Positions 3,338-61,049 of a stretch of 64,000 nucleotides of DNA are shown here, piece by piece (position 1 is the stretch's first letter; each line of letters opens with the position of its first letter). Origin of the DNA: Patescibacteria group bacterium (GTDB taxonomy: Bacteria > Patescibacteriota > UBA1384 > XYA2-FULL-43-10 > 1-14-0-10-43-13). Location of the stretch: contig JBAZBD010000001.1 in NCBI GenBank assembly GCA_041671645.1, forward strand, positions 173,365 through 237,364. The letters are read 5' to 3'. The translations under genes and the position numbers were made by a program. A model generated the notes under the pieces. The model saw only the letters and a list, made by a program, of their open reading frames with translations. It was not told where the DNA came from and made no database searches.

Positions 3338-5424
3338 AAGGCGCCGAAAAGGTTGGGGAAAATACAGGAGAAGAAATAAAGGGGCAAGAGGCAACGCCTG
3401 CCGCGGAGCCTAGTAATAGTGAAGTATTGAACAATCGTGCCGAGCAGGTCGTCGGTCTGAAGGGTCTTTCAGAAAATATTAGTAGCAGAAACAGCCAGAC
3501 AGCCGAACAAGTCGGTGGAAATTTGGACGCAGACGCGACTGAAATCGCTGGAGTCAAGGCAGAGATAGATAGAATTGGTGTACAGGAAGGTGGCGTTGCT
3601 CAAGCTAGATTGGCAGAATCACTTGAGAAAATCAGGCAAGAAGCAGGCTCTGACGGCGAGAATCCTGAGGAGATTGCCGCATTGGATAACTTGATCAAAC
3701 GGGTGAAGCCTAGCGCGGAGGAGAATAGTGAAGTTCAGCCTGACGTAGATTGGGACGAAAATTCGGCCAATTTTGATGAAGGCGACAAGCATATCGCGTC
3801 TGAAGGTGAGGAAACTCAGGACGCAGGGCCAGAGCAGAGAGACGACGATGAGAAAACAAAGATCTACGAAGAGCCGAATTTAGATCCTGCCGTCCAGAAG
3901 ATATATGAAGAGATTACAGCTCGTGCGGCCAAATGGACGCAAGAGGCACAGAGCGGCAAGTCTGGCGCGATTGCACAGACCGAATCGCGGAAAGACCCTG
4001 CTCGATACTCGGGCCAGATGAACTTCTTGAGCTCCAGAGGAGTTTGGGAAAGATTTGCCAAAGATTATCCCGAAAAAGCGTTGGCTTACGCTGATAAGAA
4101 TGAGGACATTGCCGAGGGCTTGGCGGCTTCTGCCCCGCGTGCAGAAAAATCCGATGGAGCGCCGAAAATTATTCCCGGCGAAGCAGGGCCCGAAATGCCT
4201 GCAGAAGAAGATGAAACGCCAGGCGAGGAATCAGAATCGGAGACAGACAAAATGATTCAGGAGCTTGGTCTCGAAGATGCTTCGCCTGAGAATCCAGTCA
4301 AAATGCAGTGGGCCAACGAGGATGGCGATGTCGAGGTATCAGTCACTGGGGTCAATGAAGAGCCAGGTGCTGATGGCAGGACGTATGCTAGGGCTTTTGA
4401 CGAGGAAACTGGCGCAGAGTTTGAGGTGCCGCTAGACGAATTGCAGTCGATCGATCTAGCTGTCGGGGAGGAGGACGATGGATCCCCAGACGAAGAGGGC
4501 GAAGCTCAGAAGAAGGAAGCGCCAACCGAGAAAGAGGGCGAGGATGAGCCGACTCAGGCCGAAGCAGACGAGAAGAATAATGCTTATCGTGAGAAGATCT
4601 CTCAAGAGAGACAGCTGCGGATACGTGACCGCCTAGAGAGACGGGGCAAAGAGCAGGCAGAGAGAGACGAAGTGGCAGTACAATCAATTACGATGAGCCT
4701 AGAGAAGGCTAGTACTGCTCTTGCGGAGACGAAAGCCGATACGGGAGAAGAGAGCATATCGAAAATCGGTCCGGCTCTGAAGCTGTTAAATGAAAGTGGT
4801 GCTACCAAGAGAGAGCTTGCTATCCAACTTCTGCCTTCTGTCAGAGCTTTTGCTCGAAACATGGATAAATCATCTTCTGACCCAACTGCAGCGGAAACCA
4901 TTACAGCACAGAAAATACTCGGTAATCGAGAAGCTGGCGACCAGAGGTTGCAAGAAGCATTTGTCAAAATTAATTCATTGAATCAGGAGACAGACAAAGT
5001 CTCTGGCGGCGAATCCATGGCGTATTTGATGAAATATATCGTGAAAAACTCCGAGGGTAAACTTGGCAACCCTGCCCAGAAAGATGACATTGAAGCTCCC
5101 CAGGCACAAAATGATACGGTTGAAGAGGCTGAACCTTTGACTGCGGAGCGACCAATTGCTAATCAGGCAGAAGGAGCTGATTTAGGCGGTGATGAAGTTG
5201 GGGACGAAGGAAATGAACCAGGGTCCAGGAACGCCGACACAGTTGAAGAACCAAGCACGGCCCAAGATGGAGATCAAGAAGCGGCAAATCCATATAGCGA
5301 TCCGGAGGCTCAGCCAGATGTAAATTGGGATGACAATTCGGCCGAATTCGATGAGGCTGATAGGGAAATTGCCCAGTCAGATCAGACCGAGAAAACAGAA
5401 GCAAAAGCAGACAGCGGGGAATAA
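3334..5424 (+). CDS. Very acidic (D/E/A-rich) low-complexity hypothetical protein with an internally duplicated motif
   Basis: The 696-aa ORF carries the motif QPDV(D/N)WD(E/D)NSA(N/E)FDE(G/A)D(K/R)xIA near both the N- and C-termini. I see no signal peptide. Confidence 0.6.
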   Translation: MKGAEKVGENTGEEIKGQEATPAAEPSNSEVLNNRAEQVVGLKGLSENISSRNSQTAEQVGGNLDADATEIAGVKAEIDRIGVQEGGVAQARLAESLEKIRQEAGSDGENPEEIAALDNLIKRVKPSAEENSEVQPDVDWDENSANFDEGDKHIASEGEETQDAGPEQRDDDEKTKIYEEPNLDPAVQKIYEEITARAAKWTQEAQSGKSGAIAQTESRKDPARYSGQMNFLSSRGVWERFAKDYPEKALAYADKNEDIAEGLAASAPRAEKSDGAPKIIPGEAGPEMPAEEDETPGEESESETDKMIQELGLEDASPENPVKMQWANEDGDVEVSVTGVNEEPGADGRTYARAFDEETGAEFEVPLDELQSIDLAVGEEDDGSPDEEGEAQKKEAPTEKEGEDEPTQAEADEKNNAYREKISQERQLRIRDRLERRGKEQAERDEVAVQSITMSLEKASTALAETKADTGEESISKIGPALKLLNESGATKRELAIQLLPSVRAFARNMDKSSSDPTAAETITAQKILGNREAGDQRLQEAFVKINSLNQETDKVSGGESMAYLMKYIVKNSEGKLGNPAQKDDIEAPQAQNDTVEEAEPLTAERPIANQAEGADLGGDEVGDEGNEPGSRNADTVEEPSTAQDGDQEAANPYSDPEAQPDVNWDDNSAEFDEADREIAQSDQTEKTEAKADSGE

Positions 5425-18976: not shown

Positions 18977-20257
18977 ATGTGTCTCACAATTCCAGGAAAA
19001 ATTGAATCGATAGATGACGTGGGTATCGCCACCGTATTATCATCCCGCGAAAAGGCTCAGATTGACCTCTCGCTTGTTTCTGACGTTTACCCCGGTGATT
19101 GGATACTTTATGCATCAAACAGGGCTGTCAAGGCAATCTCGGAGGAAGATGCCAAGGAGATCATAGCCTTGCTCGAAGACAATTATAGCCAGGTCGACGT
19201 TAGCCGTTTGCCCCTGCAGTTCAAGAAAATTATATACAAAGTTCGCTCGGGCAATTCTGATTTGACCAAGGACGAGATAGTTTATCTTTTGAACCTCAAA
19301 GGCAAGAATAACCTCGAAACTTTGTATGCCGAAGCCAATACTCTACGCAAAGACAGGATCAAGGATTTCGTTTGCATCCATGGCATTATTGAGTTCTCAA
19401 ATTATTGCAAAAATCTCTGCCTCTATTGTGGCATCCGAAAAGGTAATAAGGTCGAGCGATATCGGATGAAACGAGAAGAGATTGTTAAAGCTGCGAGGCA
19501 GGCAGTTGACGAGGAGGGCTACAAGCTCCTGGTCCTGCAAAGTGGGGAAGACGATGAGTATTCTGATGACGATTTGATCAAAATTGTAGCGGAAATCAAG
19601 AAAGAACTGCGAGTCTTTGTCTTTCTTTCTGTCGGCGAGAGAAGTATTAATTTTTACAAAAAAGCTTATGAAGCTGGGGCGTCTGGGGCTCTGATTCGAT
19701 TCGAAACCTCGGACCCCGAATTTTATTCAGAATTACGCCCGGGCCACAAATTGGACGACCGATTAAAATTAATCAAACAGATGACGGAGCTCGGCTACTA
19801 CATGGCGACAGGCAATATCGTCGGCTTGCCAGGGCAAAGTCTTGAAAGTCTGGCAGACGATTTGCTTTTGATCAAAAAGTTAAATGCGCCAATGATCAGC
19901 TCTGGCCCGTGGCTCCCAGCCAAAGGAACGCCGCTGGTGCAAGTCGAAAGTCGAAAGTCGAAAGTCGAAAGTTTGGAAATTATGCTGAAGTATATTGCAG
20001 TTGCTAGGTTCTTGATGCCGGAGGCGAAGATTCCGGTCACGACAGCGCTTGAGACGCTTGACCCAGAGAACGGACGACACAAGGGACTTTTGGCGGGTGC
20101 CAGCGCTCTAATGTTTAGCCTGACCCCAGAGAAATATGCGGGCGATTATTCTATCTATGACAACAAATATCGCGAGCGTGAGAAGGTCTGGCAGAAATAT
20201 GGCTTGTTTAAGGGTGAAGAGAGCTACGAAATGTTGGCTGATAGGCTTAAGGTTTGA
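18977..20257 (+). CDS. Fusion protein: N-terminal HypC/HupF-like domain plus a HydE/PylB/BioB-family radical SAM domain
   Basis: The N-terminus MCLTIPGKIESIDD...IDLSLV...GDWILY matches the HypC signature MC(L/I)x(I/V)PG. After that comes IIEFSNYCKNLCLYCGIRKGNKVERYRM (CxxxCxxC) with HydE-like motifs VLQSGED and GNIVGLPGQS. Confidence 0.75.
   Translation: MCLTIPGKIESIDDVGIATVLSSREKAQIDLSLVSDVYPGDWILYASNRAVKAISEEDAKEIIALLEDNYSQVDVSRLPLQFKKIIYKVRSGNSDLTKDEIVYLLNLKGKNNLETLYAEANTLRKDRIKDFVCIHGIIEFSNYCKNLCLYCGIRKGNKVERYRMKREEIVKAARQAVDEEGYKLLVLQSGEDDEYSDDDLIKIVAEIKKELRVFVFLSVGERSINFYKKAYEAGASGALIRFETSDPEFYSELRPGHKLDDRLKLIKQMTELGYYMATGNIVGLPGQSLESLADDLLLIKKLNAPMISSGPWLPAKGTPLVQVESRKSKVESLEIMLKYIAVARFLMPEAKIPVTTALETLDPENGRHKGLLAGASALMFSLTPEKYAGDYSIYDNKYREREKVWQKYGLFKGEESYEMLADRLKV
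19943..19972. repeat. Heptanucleotide tandem repeat (GTCGAAA)x4, in frame in the radical SAM CDS
   Basis: gtcgaaagtcgaaagtcgaaagtcgaaagt encodes VESRKSKVES. It is the reverse-complement unit of the repeat at 1888-1918. Confidence 0.8.
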
Positions 20258-26667: not shown

Positions 26668-26760
26668 ACAAGGGTGGGAGGGAATAATTATGCAATAGTT
26701 CACGATGCAGTGGCATAAGGCTTATAATAAGACAGCTGACAAACTAGAAGTTCATTTTTT

Positions 26761-26843
26761 AATTTTTATTTCTTAATTGTTAATCAATTTTTAATTATAA
26801 ATTATTAATTAGACATTGATTAGAAATTAGTATTTAGAAATTC
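26761..26843. repeat. AT-rich ~85 bp element; inverted copy of 860-950, immediately upstream of dnaX
   Basis: It is near-identical to the reverse complement of 860-950, with one 6-nt indel. Confidence 0.75.
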
Positions 26844-26856
26844 CCCGAAGGGGTCT

Positions 26857-28413
26857 ATGGCTTTTTACCAAAAATATCGGGCAAAGAAATTCGGCGAGAT
26901 GGTCGGCCAAGAACATGTTGTTGGCACTATTTTGGCGAGCATTGCGGGCGATCGCATGGTTCACGCCTATCTTTTGGCGGGGCCAAGAGGGATCGGTAAG
27001 ACTTCAGTTGCCCGTCTTTTGGCCAAGGCAGTTAACTGTGAGAAAGTGGCCAAAGATCGCAAAGAGGGCAAGACTGATGGCGAGCCATGTGGCAAATGTA
27101 GTGCTTGTATTGAGATCGGAAACGGCCAAGCGATTGATGTGATAGAGATCGACGCCGCCTCGCATACCGGTGTTGACGAAATACGCGATGTGATCGAGAA
27201 AGCTCGTCTTTCACCCGTCAGATTGGCCAAAAAGGTTTATATAATCGATGAAGTCCATATGCTCTCCAAGAGCGCCTTTAACGCACTTTTGAAAACTCTG
27301 GAAGAGCCACCAAGCCATGCCATATTTATCTTGGCTACTACTGAAATTCACAAAATACCGGCAACTATAATTTCTCGAGTTCAGAGATATGATTTTCGTC
27401 GTGCGACCAAGGAAGATTTGGTAAAAAATTTGAAGCGCGTTGCAGCTGCTGAAAAAATGGACGTTTCTGATGAAGCGATTGAGCTTATAGCTATCCTGTC
27501 TGCAGGCGGGCATCGTGATGCACTCGGCCTTCTCGAACAGCTTTCTTCGGCCAAAGGCAAGATCATTTTGGAGTCGGCAAGAGAAATCTTGGGAGTATCA
27601 AGTCAAAAGGAAATTTTTGATTTTCTGGGGGCGATTTTTAATAACAACCCGGAGGAGGGATTAAAAATCGCCCATACTGTTTATGATCAGGGGCTTGATC
27701 TGCTTGAGTTCAATCGTGGTGTGATCGACCGTCTGCGCAAGATTATGGTTTTGTCCGTCTCTGATTCAAGCCTCTCTGATGAGACTCAGGATAGTGCCGA
27801 ACAGCTCAAAGAAATTGCGAAGGGTCAGAAGATTGAAAGACTTCTGTCGCTGATTAACATTTTTGTCGAGGCAGGGATGATGCTCAAAGATGTCTCGTAT
27901 CCTCTCTTGCCAATCGAAATGGCGGTTGTCAAATCAGTTGAAAGTATAAAGTTGAAAGTTGAAAGTGCGAATAAAGAAGAAAAATTGATCATTAGTATTC
28001 CCGAACCAAAGAAACCTGAACCAAAAATACCAGACCAAGAGCAGACCAAACCAGAATTGTCTGTTCCCCCTGACTCCGTGCCTGTGCCCGTGCTAGAAAT
28101 GACCAAGGATCTCTGGATTCGGATTATAGATGAGACCAAGAAGGAGAATTCTACACTGGCCGCTCTGCTTCGAGATGCTCATCCAACAGAAGTTACCGCC
28201 GAGAAATTGATCTTGGGGGTCAAGTTCAAATTTCACAAGGACAAGATTTCTGAGACCAAAAACATGGCGGCTCTCGAGAAGATCGTCTGCGCCGTGACTG
28301 GCTCTCCATATAATGTTTCGTGTAGACTGGTAAGCGACAAGCCCAAGGCCACATCTACCGATCCGAACGAGATCGAAAAAGCAGTAGGCGAGATCTTCGA
28401 TCTCAGTTCATAA
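26857..28413 (+). CDS. dnaX: DNA polymerase III gamma/tau subunit
   Basis: The Walker A is GPRGIGKTSVARLLAKAVNCE. The Zn motif CGKCSACIEIGNGQAIDVIEIDAAS is present. Confidence 0.9.
   Translation: MAFYQKYRAKKFGEMVGQEHVVGTILASIAGDRMVHAYLLAGPRGIGKTSVARLLAKAVNCEKVAKDRKEGKTDGEPCGKCSACIEIGNGQAIDVIEIDAASHTGVDEIRDVIEKARLSPVRLAKKVYIIDEVHMLSKSAFNALLKTLEEPPSHAIFILATTEIHKIPATIISRVQRYDFRRATKEDLVKNLKRVAAAEKMDVSDEAIELIAILSAGGHRDALGLLEQLSSAKGKIILESAREILGVSSQKEIFDFLGAIFNNNPEEGLKIAHTVYDQGLDLLEFNRGVIDRLRKIMVLSVSDSSLSDETQDSAEQLKEIAKGQKIERLLSLINIFVEAGMMLKDVSYPLLPIEMAVVKSVESIKLKVESANKEEKLIISIPEPKKPEPKIPDQEQTKPELSVPPDSVPVPVLEMTKDLWIRIIDETKKENSTLAALLRDAHPTEVTAEKLILGVKFKFHKDKISETKNMAALEKIVCAVTGSPYNVSCRLVSDKPKATSTDPNEIEKAVGEIFDLSS
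27936..27966. repeat. Heptanucleotide tandem repeat (AGTTGAA/AGTATAA) inside dnaX, in frame
   Basis: agttgaaagtataaagttgaaagttgaaagtg encodes VESIKLKVES. Confidence 0.8.
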
Positions 28414-28501
28414 TTTCTAATTCTTAATTTTTATTCAAATATTAATTAATAATTAAAAATTGATTAAAAATTAGAAACTACCAATTAACAATTACTCGAA
28501 T
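28414..28501. repeat. AT-rich ttctaatt-family intergenic element upstream of dnaB
   Basis: It shares ctaattaataattNNaattaaaaattgattaaNaatta with the element at 860-950. Confidence 0.65.
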
Positions 28502-35595: not shown

Positions 35596-37104
35596 ATGCA
35601 AGAACGGTATGCAGACACCAGAATCGAGCGAATCTGGAGTAACGAAGAGCTACTGCTTGGTTGGCAGACTGTCGAAAAAGCGTTAATCCAAGCTCGTTTC
35701 AATCTAAAACTGATGCCCGAGGTTGATTTTCGGGCGATCATGGAAGCTTTAGACTCAACACCGCCTAATGTTGATTGTTGGAAAGATTGGGACAATAGAC
35801 TGCATCATGACTTAAATGCTGCTCTCAAGGAGCGGATGCGTTTCATTCCTGGCGATCTTCAGCGTTGGTACCATAGTGGTATCACAAGTTATGATACTGA
35901 AGAGGCGGCGATGTTGCGCAAGATCATTATGGCGATCGAAATTTATGAAGCAGAGGTTGTTGAACTTTTAGGAGTAATCAAATCTCAAGCTTTAAAATAT
36001 CGATACACACCCATGATGGGTGTGACGCATGGACAGTGGGCTGACCCTCAATCATTCGGAAAGAGATTAGCTTGTTGGCATCAAGAGCTACAGATGGGGC
36101 TTACTTTACTTCGAGAGTTGAAGTTAAAACTCATCTATTCGAAAATGTCTGGTTTTGTCGGAAACTACACCGAAATAACACCTGAGATTGAAAAAGAGGC
36201 TCTGAGAATCCTCGGATTCAAACCCTATTATGGTGCAACTCAGATCGTACCTCGAACATTGTATGTTCCGGTGGCTTCAACGATTGGCATGATGTCGAAA
36301 ACAATCGCTAATATTGCGATGACCATCAGACTCGGAGCGAGAAGCGCTTCCGTTCTATATCATGAGCCGTTTGGCAAGCAACAAACCGGTTCGACAGCTG
36401 GTCCGCACAAGCGGAATACGATCAACGATGAAAAAGCTGGTGGCATGGATATCATGATCACCAAATACATCGAGATGATCATAGCGTGTTGTGGGACCTG
36501 GGAGGAGCGGGATATCGCTCACTCGTCTGTCGAAAGAAACGCGTGGCCGGACTTATTTCACGCCAGCATCCATCAGGCGAAAGTCATGACCAAAATGATT
36601 GGAGGCTTGGTTGTCTATCCCAAGAACATGATGCTCGAAATTGTGAAGACCAACGGTTGTTACGCGGCGAACGTCGCCAAAGAGCAATTAAAGGAGTGGG
36701 GCGAATCGTATGGCTTGAGCGCTGCTGATTGCTACAAAATCTTTCAACTGGCAGCTTTTAATCTCAGCTGTCCGATACAAGATGAAGATATCGGCAACGA
36801 TCCTGGTTTGATGGATGCGACATTGCGAAGCATCGAGCAGGAAGACTGTTCGGGCCATGCCCGGCGTAATATCCAATATCATATCTCTCTGGGCGAGCTT
36901 GAGCCAAGCGGCGTGCTTGATATTACGGATGAGACAATCAAAGTTTGGAATACCAAGCTTCGGGCGATCTTTGACAGCGTCGAGGTCAACGAGCGTTGGG
37001 ACGAGGTCTTCTCGCTCAAATATCTACTACGCAATGAAGCCAAGATCTTCGAGGAGGTATTTCCGGAACCTGAAGCCCATGAGGAATATGTACCTGGAGC
37101 GTAA
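35596..37104 (+). CDS. purB: Adenylosuccinate lyase (fumarate-lyase family); the ORF could extend to 35497
   Basis: The family signature is GSTAGPHKRN (GSSxMPxKxN). The N-terminus IERIWSNEELLLGWQTVEKAL matches PurB. The RBS aaagggga precedes the ATG at 35596. Confidence 0.8.
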   Translation: MQERYADTRIERIWSNEELLLGWQTVEKALIQARFNLKLMPEVDFRAIMEALDSTPPNVDCWKDWDNRLHHDLNAALKERMRFIPGDLQRWYHSGITSYDTEEAAMLRKIIMAIEIYEAEVVELLGVIKSQALKYRYTPMMGVTHGQWADPQSFGKRLACWHQELQMGLTLLRELKLKLIYSKMSGFVGNYTEITPEIEKEALRILGFKPYYGATQIVPRTLYVPVASTIGMMSKTIANIAMTIRLGARSASVLYHEPFGKQQTGSTAGPHKRNTINDEKAGGMDIMITKYIEMIIACCGTWEERDIAHSSVERNAWPDLFHASIHQAKVMTKMIGGLVVYPKNMMLEIVKTNGCYAANVAKEQLKEWGESYGLSAADCYKIFQLAAFNLSCPIQDEDIGNDPGLMDATLRSIEQEDCSGHARRNIQYHISLGELEPSGVLDITDETIKVWNTKLRAIFDSVEVNERWDEVFSLKYLLRNEAKIFEEVFPEPEAHEEYVPGA

Positions 37105-37119
37105 TTCTAAACAAGATCC

Positions 37120-37170
37120 GAGGGCGGATCGCAGAGAGTATACATACTCAAGCGGTTCGCTCTTTTTAGT
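37120..37170 (+). terminator. Conserved terminator module, copy B
   Basis: gagggcggatcgc...gcggttcgctc followed by TTTTT, ~85% identical to copy A. It sits between the convergent genes purB and 37166. Confidence 0.7.
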
Positions 37171-37906
37171 TCAAATGTAGAATATTTTCGATATATTTCT
37201 TCATTTTTATTTGGTCTTCGATGCTGTTGCCGACTTCGATTGCGGCATACGGAGCGAAATATTTCGGATAATATCGTTTGAGATAATCCATTTGTTTCAA
37301 ATCATCCATATAGTGACGGTCGTTGGTCCAAAAATCGTATTCAGGAATGAACATCTTAGCATCGGCTATAGCGCTCATATGGATGGCGCCAATTTTGTAT
37401 TTCTCGGCAATACCGATATTTATCTCATAACCAGGTAGATTTTGTAATCTGACACTCTCTAAGTGAGAAAGATCGAGACAGACGCCGGCAAAACCCTCGA
37501 GATCTTCGGCGGTCAAACCCTGTACGAAGGCACGGCCAGCATTTTCGATGTAAATCATATTTTTGTATTTGTCCAAGTCGTGGATTATCGGCCAGTCGAT
37601 GGTCGGATGCAGATTGACGGCCTTGGTACCAAAATTTCTGATCATAAAATCTAATTCGTTGGGATGCATATCAGAGCGGATATGAGCAAATGGGATCGAA
37701 ACTGGGCCGAGTTCCTTCACTATTGTTTTGAATAATTCTTCTCGTTCTTCTTGGCTATTGATACAGTTTGGGAAAAGAGCGAATTCCTTGATCTCAAATT
37801 TTTTCAGATCGCCAACATTTTTTCGCCAGTCAGGATTATTTAACGTTGTGAGTGAGACTAATATTTTCGTTTTCATAATAAGTATTAAAGCAAAAAGACG
37901 AGCCAT
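37166..37906 (-). CDS. Hypothetical protein (246 aa), possibly a TIM-barrel-like fold
   Basis: The ATG at 37906 follows the RBS ggaagg. I see no confident motif. Confidence 0.55.
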   Translation of the reverse strand: MARLFALILIMKTKILVSLTTLNNPDWRKNVGDLKKFEIKEFALFPNCINSQEEREELFKTIVKELGPVSIPFAHIRSDMHPNELDFMIRNFGTKAVNLHPTIDWPIIHDLDKYKNMIYIENAGRAFVQGLTAEDLEGFAGVCLDLSHLESVRLQNLPGYEINIGIAEKYKIGAIHMSAIADAKMFIPEYDFWTNDRHYMDDLKQMDYLKRYYPKYFAPYAAIEVGNSIEDQIKMKKYIENILHLN

Positions 37907-37950
37907 CAGCAACCTTCCAAAATCGTTTTTTAGCTGTTAGAATTCCTAAG

Positions 37951-39945
37951 ATGACTAACTTATTGGAAAACCTAAACAAACCGCAGCAAGAGGCTGTTTT
38001 GGCGACGGAGGGGCCTGTCTTGGTCTTGGCTGGAGCGGGATCTGGCAAGACGAAGGCGCTGACTCACCGGATCGCATATTTGATTCGCGAGAAGCATGTC
38101 TCGCCCTATTCTGTCTTGGCTGTCACCTTCACGAATAAGGCAGCAGCCGAGATGCAATCTCGTGTTTCGAGTTTGCTCTCTGGGAATAAGGAATTAGGAA
38201 TTATGAATAAGGGAAGTGAAAACCCTAATTCCTACTCCGATATTCCTAATTCGGCGGATGCATTCCGTCTACCTTGGATGGGGACTTTTCACTCCATTTG
38301 TGTTCGGATTTTGCGGCGCGAAGCTGATTTTGTCGGGTATTCTAGAAGCTTCACCATTTACGATTCACAGGATTCGCTTTCGGTGATCAAGAAGATTATG
38401 AAGGAGCAAAATGTCGATCCGAAACATTTCAATCCCAATTCCGTCCAGTATTTCATTTCCGGTGCCAAGAACGAGCTGATCGATTCGGCCGGTTACAAAA
38501 AGTATATCAACTCTCCGTTCGAGGCGGTCACCAGCAAAGTTTACGAGCGCTACGAGAAGTACTTGCGCGAAGCAAATGCGATGGATTTTGACGATCTGAT
38601 CATGCAATGTGTCTTCTTGTTTCAAAAAAATCCGGCTATTTTGGAAAAATATCAAAATTTATTTCGCTATATTCTAGTTGACGAGTACCAGGACACCAAC
38701 CAAGCACAGTATTTGTGGGCAAAGTTGTTGGCCGAGAAGCACAAGAATATTATGGTGGTGGGTGACGATTATCAATCTATTTACAGTTGGCGCGGTGCGA
38801 ATTTCAAGAATATTTTGAATTTTGAGCGTGATTACAAAAACGCGGTCGTGGTCAAATTGGAGCAAAATTATCGCTCGACCAAGACGATCCTGGATGCGGC
38901 CAACGAGGTGATCAAATACAACGAGAACAAGACCGACAAGAAACTCTGGACCGAGAAGGAAGAAGGCGCCGCAATCACGGTTTACGAGGCACTAAACGAA
39001 AAAGATGAGGCAGAATTCTTGGCCATGGAGATTAGATCGATGCGTAATCGCGGTATGGATTACAACGACTTTGCAGTTCTGTACCGGACGAATGCTCAAT
39101 CTCGTGCGGTCGAGGAAGTTTTCTTGCGTTTCAAAATGCCATATCGAGTTGTCGGCGGTCTTCGCTTTTACGAACGCAAAGAGATCAAGGATATGATTTC
39201 ATATTTGAGATTGATGTCCAATCCTGCTGACCACGAAGCCTTGAGCAGAATCGTCTCGTCTCCGCCGAGAGGAATTGGCGACAAAACACTCGAGCAAATT
39301 CGCGGATTTCGCTATGACGATCCGGAAGAGAAATTGATGAGCTTGCCCAAGAAAGTCCAGGATTTCTATAAAGTGTTGAAGGATTTGTCGCTTGCTTCGT
39401 TGACTGCTTCGCTCGATCAATTAATTATCAAAATTGCAGAGAGAACTGGTTTCAAAGAATATTTGCTCGACGGCACCCCGGAGGGAGAAGCGAGATGGGA
39501 AAACGTCGAAGAGCTCTCCACCGTAGCGGAGCAAGCCGAGGCCAATCATGAAATTAAAAAAGATCTTCAAGACGAAAACGACGACGTTGATCGTACAGTT
39601 CTGGAAGAGTTTCTAGAACAAGTTGCGTTGGTCCAAGATACCGATCAAATGAACGAGGGCGACGGTGTCGTCACTCTAATGACTTTGCACTCTGCCAAAG
39701 GACTAGAATTCAGCGTCGTATTTATCGTCGGCGCCGAAGAAGGAATATTTCCACATTCTCGCTCCCTCATGGACGCGTCCGAGATGGAGGAAGAGCGTCG
39801 CTTGGCTTATGTTGGCATCACTCGCGCCAAGGAGCGGCTCTATATGATCCATGCAGGAGAGCGCAACATTTATGGCCGTTTCCAATCAAATCCAAGATCT
39901 CGTTTCATCGATAATATTCCGGAACATTTACTGGATCAGATTTAA
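37951..39945 (+). CDS. uvrD: ATP-dependent DNA helicase UvrD/PcrA
   Basis: The Walker A is GAGSGKTKALTHRIAYLI. TFTNKAAAEM, ILVDEYQDTN and VGDDYQSIYSWRGA are present. There is an in-frame ~25-aa insertion at 38186-38252. Confidence 0.9.
   Translation: MTNLLENLNKPQQEAVLATEGPVLVLAGAGSGKTKALTHRIAYLIREKHVSPYSVLAVTFTNKAAAEMQSRVSSLLSGNKELGIMNKGSENPNSYSDIPNSADAFRLPWMGTFHSICVRILRREADFVGYSRSFTIYDSQDSLSVIKKIMKEQNVDPKHFNPNSVQYFISGAKNELIDSAGYKKYINSPFEAVTSKVYERYEKYLREANAMDFDDLIMQCVFLFQKNPAILEKYQNLFRYILVDEYQDTNQAQYLWAKLLAEKHKNIMVVGDDYQSIYSWRGANFKNILNFERDYKNAVVVKLEQNYRSTKTILDAANEVIKYNENKTDKKLWTEKEEGAAITVYEALNEKDEAEFLAMEIRSMRNRGMDYNDFAVLYRTNAQSRAVEEVFLRFKMPYRVVGGLRFYERKEIKDMISYLRLMSNPADHEALSRIVSSPPRGIGDKTLEQIRGFRYDDPEEKLMSLPKKVQDFYKVLKDLSLASLTASLDQLIIKIAERTGFKEYLLDGTPEGEARWENVEELSTVAEQAEANHEIKKDLQDENDDVDRTVLEEFLEQVALVQDTDQMNEGDGVVTLMTLHSAKGLEFSVVFIVGAEEGIFPHSRSLMDASEMEEERRLAYVGITRAKERLYMIHAGERNIYGRFQSNPRSRFIDNIPEHLLDQI
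38186..38252. repeat. AT-rich inverted-repeat insertion (aggaattaggaatta ... ctaattcctactccgatattcctaattc), in frame inside uvrD
   Basis: It is related to the intergenic taattcctaa/ttctaatt repeat family. It interrupts the conserved LLSG-(insert)-GTFHS region. Confidence 0.65.
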
Positions 39946-40539
39946 GCATTCATTTACATGCAAATTATTTAGTTCTATAATTATACCAATAGCATCTGGG
40001 GAGGGTTGCCTTTCCTTACGATGGTGTACTTAAAGTAATCCAGACGATTGAAACGGCTGAAACGATCTCCAATCTTCACTCACATCCATTAATGGAGGGG
40101 GGAGACTGATCAGACAGATATTCTCACCGCTTTAGCGAAACGAAGCAATTTCGAACCTATTTGGTTCTGCCTATGCTTTCGTATTATTTTAATGAACTGT
40201 CAGAAGGTAAGCTTCTAGTTTTAAAGAAGCTTGAAAAAGGAAGGTTTCCTATTTTGTGTTTTGCGACTATTCTATAATCATTTTTTGTACTTAATTTTGT
40301 ATTAAATTATCAGTCTCTATATTTGCCATAGCATTATGTTGTTGGTAAAATATTGGCATAGATTTCGGGGAGGGTTGTCGAACGTTTTCGGCTGTATATA
40401 GCTAAATGCGCTCCACATTCCTATTTTGCATTTGTTAATAATTGTTGTTCCTCTTTCTCCCGCCCCACCCGTCCTCCCCTCGGGCAGGGGAGGAGCCGTT
40501 TGACTAGTTTTGGCATTGTAGTAGAATGGTAAGTAATAT

Positions 40540-41552: not shown

Positions 41553-42461
41553 ATGTCGATTGATTTAACTGATAAAGAACAACTTACAAAATATTTGAAG
41601 TCTAAGGGGTTATTGGCCAAGCAAAGTTTGGGCCAGAATTTTCTAGTTGATCGAGAGGTACTGGAAAAAATCGTAGAAGCGGCTGAGATAAAAACTAGCG
41701 ACACTGTAATCGAAGTCGGCCCAGGTCTTGGCACGTTGACGGAGGAATTAATTTTGCGGGCAGGCAAAGTCATCGCAATTGAGAAAGACGATAAGTTGGC
41801 AAAATTGTTGAGTTCACAATTTTGTCATCCTGAACTTGATTCAGGATCCAGTATTGTTAACCTAGATTCCGGATCTCAAGCCGCAGTCCGGAATGACAAT
41901 CTGGTTGTGCTAAACTCCGATATTCTAGCGGTCAATGTTCCGGAGCTGACGGGCGGAAAACCTTACAAAGTGGTGGCAAATATCCCTTATTACATTACGG
42001 CCAAAATCATCAAGTTGTTTCTGACCTCAGAGAATAAGCCTGAGTCAATCGTTTTGTTAGTGCAAAAAGAGGTGGCTGAGCGTATTTGCGCTAAGCCAGG
42101 ACAATTATCAATTCTCGCGCTATCTGTCCAAGCATTTGGCGAACCGGAAATTGTAAGCGTCGTGAAGCGGGATTCTTTTTTCCCAGCTCCTGCAGTTGAT
42201 TCGGCGATACTTCGTATCAGAATTCAGAATTCAGAATTCAGAATTCAACCGGAAGACGAGAGAGAACTTTTCCGTCTGATCCATATTGGCTTTGCCAGCA
42301 AGCGCAAAACTCTCATAAACAATTTATCGGCAGGACTTCGAATTGATAAAAAAGCAATAGCGGATATAATTAAATCAATCGGACTTGGCGAAAACGCCAG
42401 AGCACAAGAGCTGAGTCTGGAAGAGTGGAAGAAGCTATCATTAATATTGAAACTGAAATGA
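41553..42461 (+). CDS. rsmA: 16S rRNA (adenine1518/1519-N6)-dimethyltransferase
   Basis: GQNFLVD, the motif I EVGPGLGTLT and NIPYYIT are present. Confidence 0.9.
   Translation: MSIDLTDKEQLTKYLKSKGLLAKQSLGQNFLVDREVLEKIVEAAEIKTSDTVIEVGPGLGTLTEELILRAGKVIAIEKDDKLAKLLSSQFCHPELDSGSSIVNLDSGSQAAVRNDNLVVLNSDILAVNVPELTGGKPYKVVANIPYYITAKIIKLFLTSENKPESIVLLVQKEVAERICAKPGQLSILALSVQAFGEPEIVSVVKRDSFFPAPAVDSAILRIRIQNSEFRIQPEDERELFRLIHIGFASKRKTLINNLSAGLRIDKKAIADIIKSIGLGENARAQELSLEEWKKLSLILKLK
42217..42247. repeat. Heptanucleotide tandem repeat (CAGAATT)x4, in frame in rsmA/ksgA
   Basis: tcagaattcagaattcagaattcagaattcaacc encodes IRIQNSEFRIQ. Confidence 0.8.
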
Positions 42462-50705: not shown

Positions 50706-52130
50706 ATGAGCAAATATTATATTACGACCCCGATCTATTATATCAACGACGTTCCACATATTGGCCACGCGTACACTACGATCGCGGTGGACGTATTGGC
50801 GCGTTATCATCGCGCCAAAGGCGACGATGTTTTTTTCCTGACTGGTACTGACGAACATGGCGCCAAGATAGCTGAGGCGGCTGAAAAATTGGGCAAGACG
50901 CCTCGAGAATTTGCGGATGAACTGGTTCCGAAATTTGCTGACGTCTGGAAGAAGTTGAACATTTCATATGACCAATTTTTTCGCACGACCAACCCAAAGC
51001 ATGAGGAGTATGTTCAGGATTTTGTCGAGGATTTGCAAGAAAATGGCTATATCGAAAAGCGTGAATACGAAGGGCTATACTGTGTCGGATGCGAGAAATT
51101 CTTGAAAGAATCAGACCTAGTGGAGGGCTGTTGTCCAGATCACAAGAAGCCACCGGTCAAGCAAAAAGAGGAGAATTATTTCTTCAAGCTGTCAGAACTC
51201 CAGGACAAATTGCTTGAGCGGATAGAAAATGGGGAGCTGAAAATTGCCCCCGAATCACGAAAGAACGAGATTGTTGGCAAGATCAAGCAAGGTTTGGAGG
51301 ATGTCTCGATTTCTCGTGCGGCGGTAGAGTGGGGCGTCTCATACCCAGGCGATTCCAAGCAGACAATTTATGTTTGGATTGATGCCTTGCTCAATTATTA
51401 CACTGCTTGCGAGATATACGAGAAGGAGAAATTCTGGCCTGCCAGTCTGCATCTGATGGCGAAGGATATCGTCTGGTTTCATGCCGTGATCTGGCCAGCG
51501 ATGCTGATCGCTCTTGATCTGCCATTGCCCCGCAAGGTCTTTGCCCACGGTTTCTTTACCGTGAATGGCCAGAAAATGAGCAAGACGATTGGCAATGTGA
51601 TTGATCCAAATGTAATTATCGAGAAATATGGTGCCGATGCAGTCAGATTCTATCTACTCTCCGCCTTCCCTTTTGGCGAAGACGGCGATGTCTCGCTCGA
51701 AAAGCTGGCCCTCTCTTACAACAAGCTGGCCAATGATATTGGTAACTTGCTGCAGAGAACAATCTCGATGATGGTCAAGTATAACGTATCAGGTATAACG
51801 TATAAGGGAGAAGAAGATTCTGTAATACGTGATACGAAATACGAAATACGAATCGACAAAGAATTAGACAGTCTTGATTTCGCTGGGGCGTTGAAGAAAA
51901 TCACCGATGTAGCACAGGCAGAGAATAAATATATTGCTGACAGAGAGCCCTGGACTTTGGCAAAAGAGGGCAAGACGGAGGAGCTGACACAAACTTTACA
52001 GCATTCATACGATTGCTTGACCTCATTGGCTCAAGTGTTGCAGCCTTTCATGCCAGAAACGGCAGAGAAAATGGCTAGTCAATTAAAATCTCTAGAACCG
52101 ATGCCACTTTTCCCTCGAATTGAATCATAA
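50706..52130 (+). CDS. metG: Methionyl-tRNA synthetase (short form); the ORF could extend to 50664
   Basis: The HIGH region is YYITTPIYYINDVPHIGHAYTT, the Zn knuckle is CVGCEKF...CPDH, and KMSKT is present. Confidence 0.9.
   Translation: MSKYYITTPIYYINDVPHIGHAYTTIAVDVLARYHRAKGDDVFFLTGTDEHGAKIAEAAEKLGKTPREFADELVPKFADVWKKLNISYDQFFRTTNPKHEEYVQDFVEDLQENGYIEKREYEGLYCVGCEKFLKESDLVEGCCPDHKKPPVKQKEENYFFKLSELQDKLLERIENGELKIAPESRKNEIVGKIKQGLEDVSISRAAVEWGVSYPGDSKQTIYVWIDALLNYYTACEIYEKEKFWPASLHLMAKDIVWFHAVIWPAMLIALDLPLPRKVFAHGFFTVNGQKMSKTIGNVIDPNVIIEKYGADAVRFYLLSAFPFGEDGDVSLEKLALSYNKLANDIGNLLQRTISMMVKYNVSGITYKGEEDSVIRDTKYEIRIDKELDSLDFAGALKKITDVAQAENKYIADREPWTLAKEGKTEELTQTLQHSYDCLTSLAQVLQPFMPETAEKMASQLKSLEPMPLFPRIES
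51779..51855. repeat. Direct repeats inside metG, in frame: (gtataacgtat)x2 then (ATACGAA)x3
   Basis: agtataacgtatcaggtataacgtataag ... gatacgaaatacgaaatacgaatcg. Confidence 0.7.
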
Positions 52131-55741: not shown

Positions 55742-55954
55742 ATGAAAACTATTTCTACAAATGAACTTCAGGATCAGATTTCCAAGGTGATTAAGGAAGT
55801 CGAAGGCGGGGAAGTCTATCAAATCAGCCGATACTCCAAGTCGGTCGCTTATTTGGTGTCCAAACCAGAGTTTGAAAAATTAATTACTGGTAGCGAATGC
55901 AAAGAGTGTATGAAGGACATGCGGAAGATAGCAAAGAAAATTTCTAATTCTTAA
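55742..55954 (+). CDS. Phd/YefM-family type II antitoxin-like protein (orphan)
   Basis: MKTISTNELQDQISKVIKEVEGGEVYQISRYSKSVAYLVS matches the Phd/YefM N-terminus. No toxin ORF follows. Confidence 0.55.
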   Translation: MKTISTNELQDQISKVIKEVEGGEVYQISRYSKSVAYLVSKPEFEKLITGSECKECMKDMRKIAKKISNS

Positions 55955-56034
55955 TTAATAATTTCTAATCAATTACTAATTTTAAATTTCTAATTAATAA
56001 TTGAATAAAAATTAAGAACTAAAAACTAATAATT
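55938..56034. repeat. AT-rich ttctaatt-family intergenic element upstream of iscS
   Basis: aaaatttctaattcttaattaataatttctaatcaattactaattttaaatttctaattaataatt. Confidence 0.65.
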
Positions 56035-57264
56035 ATGGAAAATATTTACTTAGACAATGCGGCGACCACCAAACCTGATCAGAAGGTGATTGAGGCGATG
56101 AGTCGAGTCTCGGAGGAGGCATGGGGCAATCCATCTTCGATTCACTCTGTCGGCCAGGAGGCGGCCCTTGAGGTTGATAACGGTCGAGAGACCGTAGCTA
56201 AGTTTTTGGGTTGCGACGCTACCGAGGTGATATTTACCTCTGGCGGATCGGAAAGCGATAACCTCGCTTTGCGAGGGTTAGTCGGAAGTCTGAGGGCAGA
56301 AGCTGGAAGCATTTCCTCAAACCTCAAACCTCAAGCCACTAACACATTACCTCATATCATCACTGGTGCAGGTGAGCATCACGCCGTCCTCCACACTGTA
56401 CAAGAGCTCGAGAAGGAGGGTTTGATCGAGGCGACCTACCTCAATCCTGATGCGAATGGTTTAATTACTCCAGAACACGTCATCGAGGCGATCAGAGACA
56501 ATACGATTTTGGTCAGTTTGATGTACGTAAACAATGAGACAGGCGTCGTCACGCCGATTGCCGAGATCGGCAAAAGACTTTTAACTTTCAACTTTGAACT
56601 TTCAACTCGAAATAAATCCGCGAAGCGAATTTATTTCCACACTGACGCAGTTCAAGCGGCCGAATGGCTAGATATGAATGTCCAAGATTTGGGCGTTGAT
56701 TTACTCACTTTTACATCTCACAAGATCCATGGTCCAAAGGGCATTGGAGTATTGTACGCGAAAAAGGGTACGCCGATTAAACATCAAATTAGCGGTGGAG
56801 ACCAAGAGTTTCGGCTGAGAGCTGGAACGGAAAATGTCGCTTCAATCGCTGGGATCGCACAGGCGATCACAAATATCGAGCGAGGAGCGGCCGATAGAGT
56901 TCAAACGTTGCGCGATAGACTAATCGACGGAGTTGTGAAGAATATTTCTGATGCGATCGTGAACGGTGGCAAGGCACCACGATCTCCTCATATCGCCAAT
57001 ATCTCTTTCTTGAACGCCGAAGGCGAAGCAATTATATTGAATCTCGATTTCTTGGGTATCCAAGTCTCTTCAGGCAGTGCTTGCACATCGAGATCGCTCA
57101 ACCCAAGTCACGTGTTGTCCTCGATGGGAGTCCCGCCCGAGAAGGCACATGGCTCGATTCGCTTCTCCTTAAGTCGTGAGACTACCGCAGAAGAGATTGA
57201 TAAGGTGATTGAAGTATTACCAGGAATTATTCTTAAACTGCGACAAATGTCGCCATTTAAGTAA
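56035..57264 (+). CDS. iscS: Cysteine desulfurase (IscS/NifS)
   Basis: The PLP lysine motif SHKIHGPKGIGVLY and the active-site SSGSACTS are present. Confidence 0.9.
   Translation: MENIYLDNAATTKPDQKVIEAMSRVSEEAWGNPSSIHSVGQEAALEVDNGRETVAKFLGCDATEVIFTSGGSESDNLALRGLVGSLRAEAGSISSNLKPQATNTLPHIITGAGEHHAVLHTVQELEKEGLIEATYLNPDANGLITPEHVIEAIRDNTILVSLMYVNNETGVVTPIAEIGKRLLTFNFELSTRNKSAKRIYFHTDAVQAAEWLDMNVQDLGVDLLTFTSHKIHGPKGIGVLYAKKGTPIKHQISGGDQEFRLRAGTENVASIAGIAQAITNIERGAADRVQTLRDRLIDGVVKNISDAIVNGGKAPRSPHIANISFLNAEGEAIILNLDFLGIQVSSGSACTSRSLNPSHVLSSMGVPPEKAHGSIRFSLSRETTAEEIDKVIEVLPGIILKLRQMSPFK
56578..56608. repeat. Heptanucleotide tandem repeat (ACTTTCA/ACTTTGA)x4, in frame in iscS
   Basis: cttttaactttcaactttgaactttcaactcg encodes LLTFNFELSTR. 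It is the reverse-complement unit of the repeat at 27936-27966. Confidence 0.8.
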
Positions 57265-59902: not shown

Positions 59903-61000
59903 ATGGCAAAAGAAAACGAAAAAAAGAAAATTAAGGTAGCAATTGGAATGTCCGGTGGAGTTGACTCTTCCGTCGCGGCCATGCTTCTCAAAGAGCAGGG
60001 CTTCGAAGTGGTCGGCCTTTTTTTGAAGCTCTGGAGCGATGAGAGCTGCGCTATATCTCGCGAAAATGCCTGTTGCGATGAGAAAGCCTTGGCTGACGCG
60101 CGCAAGGTGGCGGCGGAGCTCGAAATACCATTTTACGTTGTTGACGCCAGGGAAAAATTCAAGAAAGATATTGTTGATTATTATCTGGATGAATATCGGG
60201 CTCTGCGTACTCCAAATCCCTGCGTTCTTTGCAATAAGAAGATCAAGTTTGGCTGGATGCTCGAATTTGCAGAGCAGATCGGTTGCGAAAAAGTTGCGAC
60301 TGGACATTATTCGAGAATCGAAAAGACAGACCATTACAGATTATTCCGAGGCAAAGATAAGAACAAAGACCAAAGTTACTTTCTCTGGCAATTGGGCCAG
60401 GAGCAATTGTCTAAAATCATTTTTCCGCTCGGTGAAATGACCAAAGATCGGGTTCGTGCCTTGGCCAAGGAGAAAAATTTGCCAGTCTACGAAAAGGTCG
60501 AGAGCCAGGAGATATGTTTCGTGGCAGACGATTATCGAGAATTTCTGAAGCGTCATTTACCTCCAGAATATTTTGAATCTGGACGGATTGTCGACCAAAA
60601 GGGATATACAGTTGGTCAGCATGAGGGCTTGGTCAATTATACGATTGGACAACGAAAGGGCATTAGCCAATCAGCAAGTCAGCTAGCCAGCGAGTCAGTA
60701 AATAGACAACCGCTTTATGTTGTTGGGTTTAACTTGGAGAAGAATGAATTGATCGTGGGCGAAAATGCAGACACTTCACGAAGTGAAATGATTGTGGCTG
60801 ATGCATACATCAACAAGTTTGAAGACGTTAAGGTCAAGATTCGATATAGGGCCGAAGCTGTGACCTGCACTGTAAAATCCCTTATTCCTAATTCCTCATT
60901 CCTTATTCAATTTGAAACTCCTCAGCGCGCTGTGACACCTGGGCAATCGGCCGTGTTCTACTGCGGCGACGAAGTCGTTGGCGGGGGAATCATTCGATAA
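59903..61000 (+). CDS. mnmA: tRNA-specific 2-thiouridylase; the ORF could extend to 59879
   Basis: The PP-loop is KVAIGMSGGVDSSVAAMLL, and the catalytic Cys region is CNKKIKFGWMLE. Confidence 0.9.
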   Translation: MAKENEKKKIKVAIGMSGGVDSSVAAMLLKEQGFEVVGLFLKLWSDESCAISRENACCDEKALADARKVAAELEIPFYVVDAREKFKKDIVDYYLDEYRALRTPNPCVLCNKKIKFGWMLEFAEQIGCEKVATGHYSRIEKTDHYRLFRGKDKNKDQSYFLWQLGQEQLSKIIFPLGEMTKDRVRALAKEKNLPVYEKVESQEICFVADDYREFLKRHLPPEYFESGRIVDQKGYTVGQHEGLVNYTIGQRKGISQSASQLASESVNRQPLYVVGFNLEKNELIVGENADTSRSEMIVADAYINKFEDVKVKIRYRAEAVTCTVKSLIPNSSFLIQFETPQRAVTPGQSAVFYCGDEVVGGGIIR

Positions 61001-61001
61001 A

Positions 61002-61049
61002 CCCCTTCTAACTTCCCCTTCTAACTTCCCCTTCTAAAGGGGAAGAACC
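61002..61049. repeat. 13-mer tandem repeat (ccccttctaactt)x2.5 ending in the hairpin CTTCCCC-ttctaaa-GGGGAAG
   Basis: ccccttctaacttccccttctaacttccccttctaaaggggaag. Confidence 0.7.

Follow-up and report, generated by a model that had tools for sequence, protein, structure and literature searches.

Introduction

Rickettsia palindromic elements (RPEs) are palindromic repeats that lie in frame in many unrelated housekeeping genes of a reduced-genome bacterium and are translated as extra peptides at positions compatible with the protein fold. They are said to have been described by Ogata et al. in 2000 and by Claverie and Ogata in 2003, and we know of no group other than Rickettsia for which the in-frame insertion of palindromes into essential genes is textbook knowledge. 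RPEs measure about 100-150 bp and belong to defined, Rickettsia-specific, multi-copy families (summarized in PMC10969869). Here we describe a palindromic insert built of heptamers in the DNA-repair helicase gene uvrD/pcrA of a Patescibacteria group bacterium, an ultra-small member of the Candidate Phyla Radiation (CPR); the gene lies in a 64-kb stretch of contig JBAZBD010000001.1 (positions 173,365 to 237,364), hereafter called the window. As in the RPEs, which are the closest analogue of this insert, palindromic repeat DNA stands in frame in a housekeeping gene of a reduced-genome bacterium and would be translated as an extra peptide at a fold-compatible position; in contrast to the RPEs, the uvrD insert is 69 nt long, has arms of tandem 7-nt units, and was found in one full copy, while hairpins of its build are seen across many phyla.

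Heptamer repeats are the other close point of comparison. GGGAATC heptamers form inverted pairs capable of folding into stem-loops at 70-75 sites per Xanthomonas genome; closely related strains retain the locus, but the arrays in it change fast in length and sequence (Rehm et al. 2015, PMC4692102). They have in common with the uvrD insert the tandem 7-nt units, the GGAAT core and the convergent pair, but they lie mostly between genes, are G-rich and contain up to 14 units, whereas the uvrD hairpin is coding, AT-rich and has about four units per arm. TAACTGA repeats, present in 2-6 copies in Beggiatoaceae, Cyanobacteria and Bacteroidetes, are suspected of horizontal spread by an unexplained mechanism (MacGregor 2015, PMC4679880). 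Here too a single heptamer recurs in distant phyla, and copies in open reading frames (ORFs) are limited by stop codons in some frames or orientations; these repeats, however, are mostly direct, stand just upstream of start codons and reach ORFs at the protein termini, whereas the CPR arrays stand inside the sequences of conserved enzymes and the uvrD pair is a hairpin. In Nostoc, the heptamer arrays known as short tandemly repeated repetitive (STRR) sequences reportedly host nested, very small palindromic dispersed repeats, in cyanobacterial non-coding DNA (work ascribed to Mazel, 1990, and Elhai et al., 2008). Miniature inverted-repeat transposable elements, or MITEs, and repetitive extragenic palindromes (REP/REPIN) are likewise small palindromic repeats, non-coding ones, whose distribution among relatives can be patchy; their target-site duplications, unique terminal repeats, multi-copy families and linked transposase or REP-associated tyrosine transposase (RAYT) are not seen for the uvrD insert.

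By comparing the insert with homologous loci, with other repeats in the window and with hairpins in other genomes, we hypothesize that it is probably a translated heptamer-repeat hairpin, acquired laterally, without need of a function of its own, at a site filtered by selection. In the literature searched, the pattern of dense in-frame heptamer arrays within housekeeping genes of CPR bacteria, a recurrent uvrD hot spot whose unit varies with lineage and a laterally shared element was not found described, and this wider CPR pattern holds more interest than the one insert.

A heptamer hairpin in frame in uvrD

The gene and the parts of the insert, all on the plus strand, are as follows.

37951..39945, plus strand: uvrD/pcrA gene, 664 aa, host of the insert (PDB and Pfam evidence)
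38185..38253, plus strand: in-frame insert NKELGIMNKGSENPNSYSDIPNS, 69 nt, 23 codons, stop-free, defined against short-loop relatives
38183..38213, plus strand: left arm, GGAATAA GGAATTA GGAATTA TGAATAA then GGG (Tandem Repeats Finder, heptamer-run detection, register read from the sequence)
38214..38222, plus strand: spacer (hairpin loop) AAGTGAAAA, 9 nt (sequence, inverted-repeat search, fold)
38223..38252, plus strand: right arm, CCC followed by the inverted heptamers TAATTCC TACTCCG ATATTCC TAATTC (inverted-repeat pairs I1-I5, fold)

The 664-aa product finds its best solved relative in Geobacillus PcrA (1pjr, E = 5e-188), and it also matches UvrD (2is1, E = 3e-146). It belongs to the UvrD/PcrA superfamily-1 helicases by full-length similarity, including motif I (GAGSGKT), motif Ia (TFTNKAA) and the motifs after them; columns G28-T34 and T59-A64 are invariant across 43 UvrD homologues, and Pfam domains UvrD-helicase and UvrD_C are present in its homologues. 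HMMER aligns the protein to PcrA in two blocks (query 3-80 to PcrA 7-84, and query 108-662 to PcrA 87-647), so that query residues 81-107, about 25 residues, have no PcrA counterpart and the break falls between PcrA residues 84 and 87. The insert site follows helix 62-77, which comes after motif Ia, and precedes GTFHS (strand 110-112), at what we take to be the linker or crossover from domain 1A to domain 1B of PcrA. The loop measures 45 aa in the window UvrD, whereas CPR relatives with a short loop have 20-24 aa and UvrDs from outside the CPR 18-21 aa. The original prediction had placed an insert of about 25 aa between TFTNKAA and GTFHS, at 38186-38252, as an imperfect inverted repeat of repeat-derived DNA that leaves the gene intact; the split PcrA alignment and the short-loop relatives bear this out, the coordinates were right to one base, and the 69 nt are in frame and free of stops. 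Tryptic peptides predicted from the region are ELGIMNK and GSENPNSYSDIPNSADAFR.

The insert has the two to three or more head-to-tail 7-nt copies that mark a heptamer tandem repeat, and its arrays are convergent, close together and able to form a stem-loop. Tandem Repeats Finder (TRF) reports the left arm at 38183-38212 with period 7, 4.3 copies and 82% matches; the right arm is scored as a period-7 array in the near-identical copy of another uvrD locus, L001 (4104-4132, 4.1 copies). The arms, 73% complementary over 30 nt, contain perfect pairs of 11/11 nt (38191-38201 with 38242-38252) and 10/10 nt (38189-38198 with 38224-38233). As RNA the insert folds at -22.5 kcal/mol (z = -3.2; 2 of 200 dinucleotide shuffles equally good), and as DNA with z = -3.5 (0 of 200), so the predicted imperfect inverted repeat is real. 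A chance or low-complexity artefact is ruled out by the fold z-scores, the TRF result and the lag-7 statistics given below. Because 7 and 3 share no factor, three perfect GGAATTA units place a TAG in every reading frame; the uvrD copy stays open solely through its register and the variant units that it contains (GGAATAA, TGAATAA).

An AlphaFold2 run on the 43-sequence alignment (mean predicted local distance difference test, pLDDT, 78.9) gives coil for residues 78-109 between the helix and the strand that border the site, with pLDDT below 50 (about 40) for residues 80-102, all of them coil. The insert is therefore predicted to form a disordered surface loop at a domain junction; RPEs are likewise tolerated at such sites (PMC10969869). 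An Rfam search of window positions 37000-40500 with E up to 1 gave no match, group I and II introns included, which rules out a known RNA family. No promoter-like or terminator-like site was found at the insert, and an internal promoter or terminator is ruled out on that ground.

Probable lateral rather than vertical origin of the insert

38172..38257, plus strand: 86-nt tract, 97.7% (84/86) identical to the uvrD loop of L001/L002/L126, which encode protein P0004

The distribution of the hairpin does not follow the relatedness of the helicases, as judged from 592 well-aligned columns. None of the eight nearest relatives of the window UvrD (80-95% identity) has the GGAATTA hairpin, and the nearest of all, P0002 at locus L003, has a small GGAGTCA array in its place; alignment and identities agree that the insert is missing from the closest relatives. 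P0004, by contrast, carries the hairpin at only 78% protein identity to the window UvrD, and its own eight nearest relatives (80-87.5%) are without it. Across the whole gene the window and L001 are 71% identical in DNA, and the flanks of the 86-nt tract fall to this background within about 10 codons. The tract is the longest of high identity between the two syntenic loci, and the calculated probability of so well matched a tract at 71% background is about 2e-10. Only 1 of its 28 codon third positions differs, and selection on the protein consequently cannot explain the identity.

Diverged versions of the hairpin occur in a third clade (P0021, P0055-57, P0040, P0049) and in the isolated P0060 and P0042; the hairpin is patchy (polyphyletic) on the UvrD tree. 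In the P0021/P0055/P0040 clade the arms diverge without compensatory change, which is evidence against a selected stem and equally against any general nucleotide-level constraint; no selection for pairing is seen in arms that lack covariation. Given 84 of 86 shared nucleotides against a 71% background, and nearest relatives without the hairpin, a lateral rather than a vertical origin is indicated, and from these identities we conclude that the window and L001 probably share the insert by recent lateral spread or by gene conversion limited to the element.

A side observation concerns the window and L003 (38095-38220 versus 3694-3800). The DNA of the two is 99% identical where uvrD begins, only 52-60% identical at codons 50-90, around the helix before the loop, and about 85-93% identical once codon 130 is passed. 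This segment may be mosaic or recombined; no breakpoint was mapped, and a wider recombination tract around the loop is not claimed, the region being a generally variable helix and loop.

The uvrD loop as a heptamer hot spot

The nearest homologues of the window UvrD are Patescibacteria, several of them named Berkelbacteria. In 120 CPR homologues the segment from TFTNKAA to GTFHS measures anything between 20 and 102 aa, and its sequences in different clades are unrelated; UvrDs at 46% identity or less have loops of 18-21 aa without 7-base periodicity. Loop DNA was recovered from 79 loci, and the long CPR loops among these consist mostly of tandem heptamers, often as hairpins, with a unit that varies with lineage.

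GGAATTA-like unit: window, L001, L004, L138, L149, L191
GGAGTCA / GGGAGCA unit: L003, L139
CGAAAGT unit: L155, L162, L166, L168, L170
AATGACG unit and its complement: L152, L165
AAATCCT / GGATTTA unit: L141
CAAGATA unit: L144
CCAAGGC hairpin: L163
TCAGTAA plus CGACAAC units: L160

Further units exist, among them a few with 8-nt periods. In 30 distinct long loops, self-identity is 0.444 at lag 7 and 0.379 at lag 14, compared with mostly 0.22-0.28 at other lags (about 0.32-0.33 at lags 1 and 8) and 0.236 at lag 7 in control stretches of the same uvrD genes; 22 of the 30 loops, but none of the 30 controls, score highest at lag 7. An equivalent loop of unrelated, non-repetitive sequence in close relatives had been named as evidence against the original prediction: the loops are indeed unrelated, but most long ones are repetitive, built of different heptamers.

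Small GC-rich palindromes lie within or beside the heptamer arrays of several uvrD loops: L135 (10196-10351), L140 (8075-8206), L158 (552-761), L137 and L148. Among them, the mini-palindrome CCTGCCGGCAGGCAGG encodes 'CLPAGRN', 'PASPAGG' or 'VPADRQ', and ATTCCCG..CGGGAAT encodes 'VIPVKTGIQ'. Such nesting implies that several repeat families accumulate at one permissive site. Four CPR UvrD homologues of 1027-1096 aa (P0018, P0064, P0080, P0099) contain the intein domain PF14890, and uvrD accordingly also hosts true intervening sequences in other lineages.

Heptamer arrays in the window and around CPR uvrD genes

Period-7 tandem repeats reach a density of 30.5 per 100 kb in the 694 kb that surround CPR uvrD genes, compared with 3.2, 11.5 and 11.1 for periods 6, 8 and 9, and with 8.95 for period 7 at non-CPR loci; 120 of the 212 period-7 arrays at CPR loci are inside long ORFs. 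In 46 non-redundant CPR loci (540 kb) array length peaks at 29-32 nt and tops out at about 29-33 nt; the ceiling is alike in coding and non-coding DNA, and few arrays run past about 33 nt, or roughly 4.4-4.7 units. No 7-nt indels were found in arrays between locus pairs of 95-100% identity. The arrays therefore do not have the unstable copy number of slippage-prone contingency loci, and a phase-variable contingency locus is ruled out by unit numbers that are constant between near-identical loci.

The window contains at least eight further in-frame heptamer arrays, at least nine with that of uvrD.

1887-1918: array in a methyltransferase-like ORF, in frame, period 7
19941-19972: array in a radical-SAM/HypC ORF, in frame, period 7
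27936-27966: array in dnaX, in frame, period 7
42217-42247: array in ksgA, in frame, period 7
51779-51852: array in metG, a hairpin of GTATNNN units, in frame, period 7
56315-56334 and 56577-56607: two arrays in a cysteine desulfurase gene, in frame, period 7
60876..60908, minus strand: single-arm heptamer array in mnmA, read as SLIPNSSFLIQ (similarity to the left arm, TRF, Pfam tRNA_Me_trans)

Measured against a solved homologue (PDB 9wep), the cysteine desulfurase arrays add a net 15 and 9 residues. Those of ksgA (42217-42247) and metG occupy segments of ordinary length, and hence not every array is a net insertion; the mnmA segment is presumably of ordinary length too, judging by eye against the E. 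coli sequence. As a side observation, the CGAAAGT arrays of 1887-1918 and 19941-19972 match the L162 uvrD loop at 100% identity along 25-29 nt.

The mnmA array is the sequence in the window most similar to the insert: 60878-60908 matches the left arm at 29 of 31 nt (E = 6.5e-8), and a sensitive search of all 64 kb with the whole insert returned no other significant second match. The original prediction had assigned the insert to a taattcctaa family populating the intergenic regions. The motif TAATTCCTAA is in fact enriched (16 matches with at most one mismatch versus 5.4 expected), but the intergenic sites represent a separate repeat.

861-950, 26756-26845 (reverse complement), 28411-28500 and 55940-56030, either orientation: dispersed AT-rich intergenic repeat, about 85 nt (sequence comparison)

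Only one or two TAATTYC heptamers are common to this repeat and the insert, which rules out the insert as a copy of it. The copies at 861-950 and 26756-26845 are almost identical and the other two more diverged; all stand directly upstream of genes and are rich in TAATTNN units.

Similar hairpins in other genomes

A scan for GAATTAGGAAT-N15-45-ATTCCTAATTC in one genome per species (596 Gb of contigs) returned at least 120 loci, where about 1 is expected by chance (calculated with uniform base composition). Among the matches listed, sources include Bacteroidota, Chloroflexota, Acidobacteriota, Latescibacterota, Selenomonadales, Gammaproteobacteria, several Patescibacteria and a Woesearchaeote, and all of these matches are hairpins with arms of NGAATNA-type heptamer runs. 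Of the 122 hairpins listed, most are intergenic; 102 have stops in all six frames and hence are non-coding, and 4 lie inside long ORFs, in the reading frame E-L-G-I-R-N ... I-P-N-S that is also used in uvrD. Three of these four are clear in-frame inserts in enzymes, namely two GT1 glycosyltransferases and the ATPase domain of one histidine kinase, and the GT1 inserts (in a Peribacteria metagenome-assembled genome, MAG, and in Hymenobacter) share one inter-domain position. Viral contigs gave 2 hairpin matches only and none to the specific left arm, which rules out a phage-borne element.

Some GGAATTA hairpins enclose a common GC-rich core of about 40 nt, GCCGCCCACCCATCCG...GGGAGG.CGGGTGGAA.

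L033, 2366-2429 and 2773-2836: core-bearing GGAATTA hairpins
L041, 5276-5340: core-bearing GGAATTA hairpin
L060, 616-679: core-bearing GGAATTA hairpin
L091, 6401-6465: core-bearing GGAATTA hairpin
L092, 7200-7263: core-bearing GGAATTA hairpin

L033 and L041 belong to a Thermoanaerobaculales MAG and L060 to a Deltaproteobacteria MAG. An Rfam search of the GC-rich hairpin cores and loops gave no match; the core could represent a nested element of small size, or else an RNA with a structure. Both these hairpins and the palindrome-bearing ones of L135, L140 and L158 resemble the nesting in the Nostoc STRR arrays.

Weighing the explanations

The explanation that we favor runs as follows. About four tandem GGAATTA-type 7-nt units, a 9-nt spacer and about four complement units would form a hairpin that is read through rather than removed, adding a disordered 23-residue surface loop for which no function of its own need be assumed. 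The hairpin would be part of a large class, with loose limits, that takes in heptamer arrays and hairpins and is very dense in this CPR clade and found also in many other phyla. The uvrD copy would have been gained laterally and not vertically, either as a small mobile or dispersed element or through gene conversion confined to the element. Copies that survive in an essential gene would be those that occupy a permissive loop, add up to a multiple of three and have unit variants without in-frame stops, and the uvrD loop would look like a hot spot because selection filters the copies. The insert is presumably neutral. It behaves like an RPE in being an in-frame palindromic insertion at a permissive site, yet it departs from the RPEs in size (69 nt rather than about 100-150 bp) and copy number (one full copy in the window and none in the compared loci, rather than a multi-copy family); we regard it as an in-frame selfish or neutral palindromic insertion.

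Several points weigh against this explanation. The UvrD tree is a neighbor-joining tree without bootstrap support, although the identity values are robust, and the near-identity of the tract could instead reflect some nucleotide-level function. No second full-length copy of the 86-nt element was found in about 1.9 Mb of compared loci, so that a mobile element is no more than a candidate; a target-site duplication and a candidate enzyme were looked for, and neither was found. The recurrent use of exactly one codon position exceeds what a pure selection filter easily explains. Translation of the insert, finally, is inferred from the sequence.

A bolder version can be entertained only tentatively: heptamer hairpins may constitute an unrecognized pan-bacterial class of mobile DNA of about 60-90 nt, driven by a trans-acting activity, with RPE-like in-frame entry into dozens of CPR housekeeping genes and movement from lineage to lineage into one conserved uvrD site, homing-like or through element-limited gene conversion. 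If this were true, the surface loops of CPR proteins would be continually remodeled by a class of mobile DNA, and the largest radiation of uncultured bacteria would have an RPE-like system.

Growth of the repeat in situ, by slippage amplification of a 7-nt unit, inversion by template switching, vertical inheritance and unit turnover, appears unlikely. It would account for the abundance of heptamer arrays in both coding and non-coding DNA of the clade, for units that vary by lineage at one site and for the lack of transposon hallmarks, and polymerase slippage has been suggested for heptamer over-representation in bacteria (PMC4692102). It does not account for the 84/86-nt identity between lineages whose uvrD genes are 71% identical, when the nearest relatives of both have no hairpin, nor for CGAAAGT and GGAATTA units that turn up again in lineages and at loci without relation to each other. 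A ceiling of 29-33 nt on array length is not what open-ended slippage would predict, and the 7-nt copy-number differences that it would leave between 95-100% identical locus pairs were not found.

We see little probability that the insert is a classical MITE or its remnant, that is, a non-autonomous element mobilized by an insertion-sequence transposase that landed in uvrD, as the original prediction had proposed. The insert is palindromic, small and AT-rich, it is missing from close relatives and patchy on the tree, and in-frame MITE insertions are known (PMC10969869). A comparison of filled sites (window, L001, L004) with empty or short ones (L206, L128, L131, L182; P0036 at L206 serving as the empty-site reference for the P0021 clade) nevertheless revealed no flanking direct repeat as a target-site duplication. 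The only terminal repeats are the arms of tandem heptamers, which are not unique terminal inverted repeats; 69 nt is at or below the usual MITE size range; there is no other full copy in the window or in the related loci; and the window's intergenic repeat differs from the insert in sequence. The MITE proposal is, on this evidence, not sustained. No transposase was found among the 8 of 56 long window ORFs that were scanned against Pfam.

Quite improbable, too, is a functional module maintained by selection, be it a loop peptide in a CPR-specific UvrD interaction or an mRNA or DNA hairpin (an RNase III, pause or protein-binding site). The extraordinary conservation of synonymous sites between the two lineages speaks for it, as do the recurrence of the peptide NKELxIxN...NPNSxFxIPxS in several UvrD clades and the two differences between the L138 and L149 inserts, both synonymous. 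The loop, however, ranges over 20-102 aa of unrelated sequence and many CPR UvrDs have none, AlphaFold2 predicts disorder, arm complementarity decays uncompensated in the P0021/P0040 clade, and neither a promoter or terminator signature nor an Rfam match was found. An intervening sequence (mini-intron or mini-intein) removed after transcription or translation, which the original prediction had also suggested, is extremely improbable and not borne out, for despite the PF14890 inteins of other CPR UvrDs and a passage in PMC13011429 that calls introns frequent in Patescibacteria, 23 codons are far below any intein, Rfam finds no group I or II intron or other family, and the insert is in frame and stop-free in every carrier, which an excised element would not need.

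On the favored explanation, a laterally acquired and translated hairpin, a CPR bacterium would arrive at the same outcome as the RPEs with another building block, tandem heptamers, and at high density. Some of the odd inserts of low complexity in CPR proteins, the uvrD loop among them, may owe their presence to heptamer arrays, and in-frame arrays would chart, in a natural way, which loops of conserved enzymes are permissive. The peptides that they encode, together with the lag-7 periodicity, would be expected to mislead annotation, alignment and homology searches. The 86-nt tract common to diverged lineages, finally, gives a concrete handle on the spread of heptamers, which has been called unexplained (PMC4679880, PMC4692102).

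Other repeats in the window

A second type of in-frame insert is present in ksgA (ORF 41553-42461) at 41821-41900, where 24 extra codons (CHPELDSGSSIVNLDSGSQAAVRND) form two small hairpins, ATCCTGAA..TTCAGGAT and ATTCCGGA..TCCGGAAT. The L003 orthologue does not have it. Over the first 30 nt it matches L130 4655-4684 at 100% and sites in L182 and L152 at 97-100%, and hence it belongs to a palindrome family dispersed among CPR genomes. Right after the mnmA stop, a perfect 13-nt tandem repeat (CCCCTTCTAACTT, 2.8 copies, 61002-61037) is followed by AAAGGGGAAG, which is capable of pairing.

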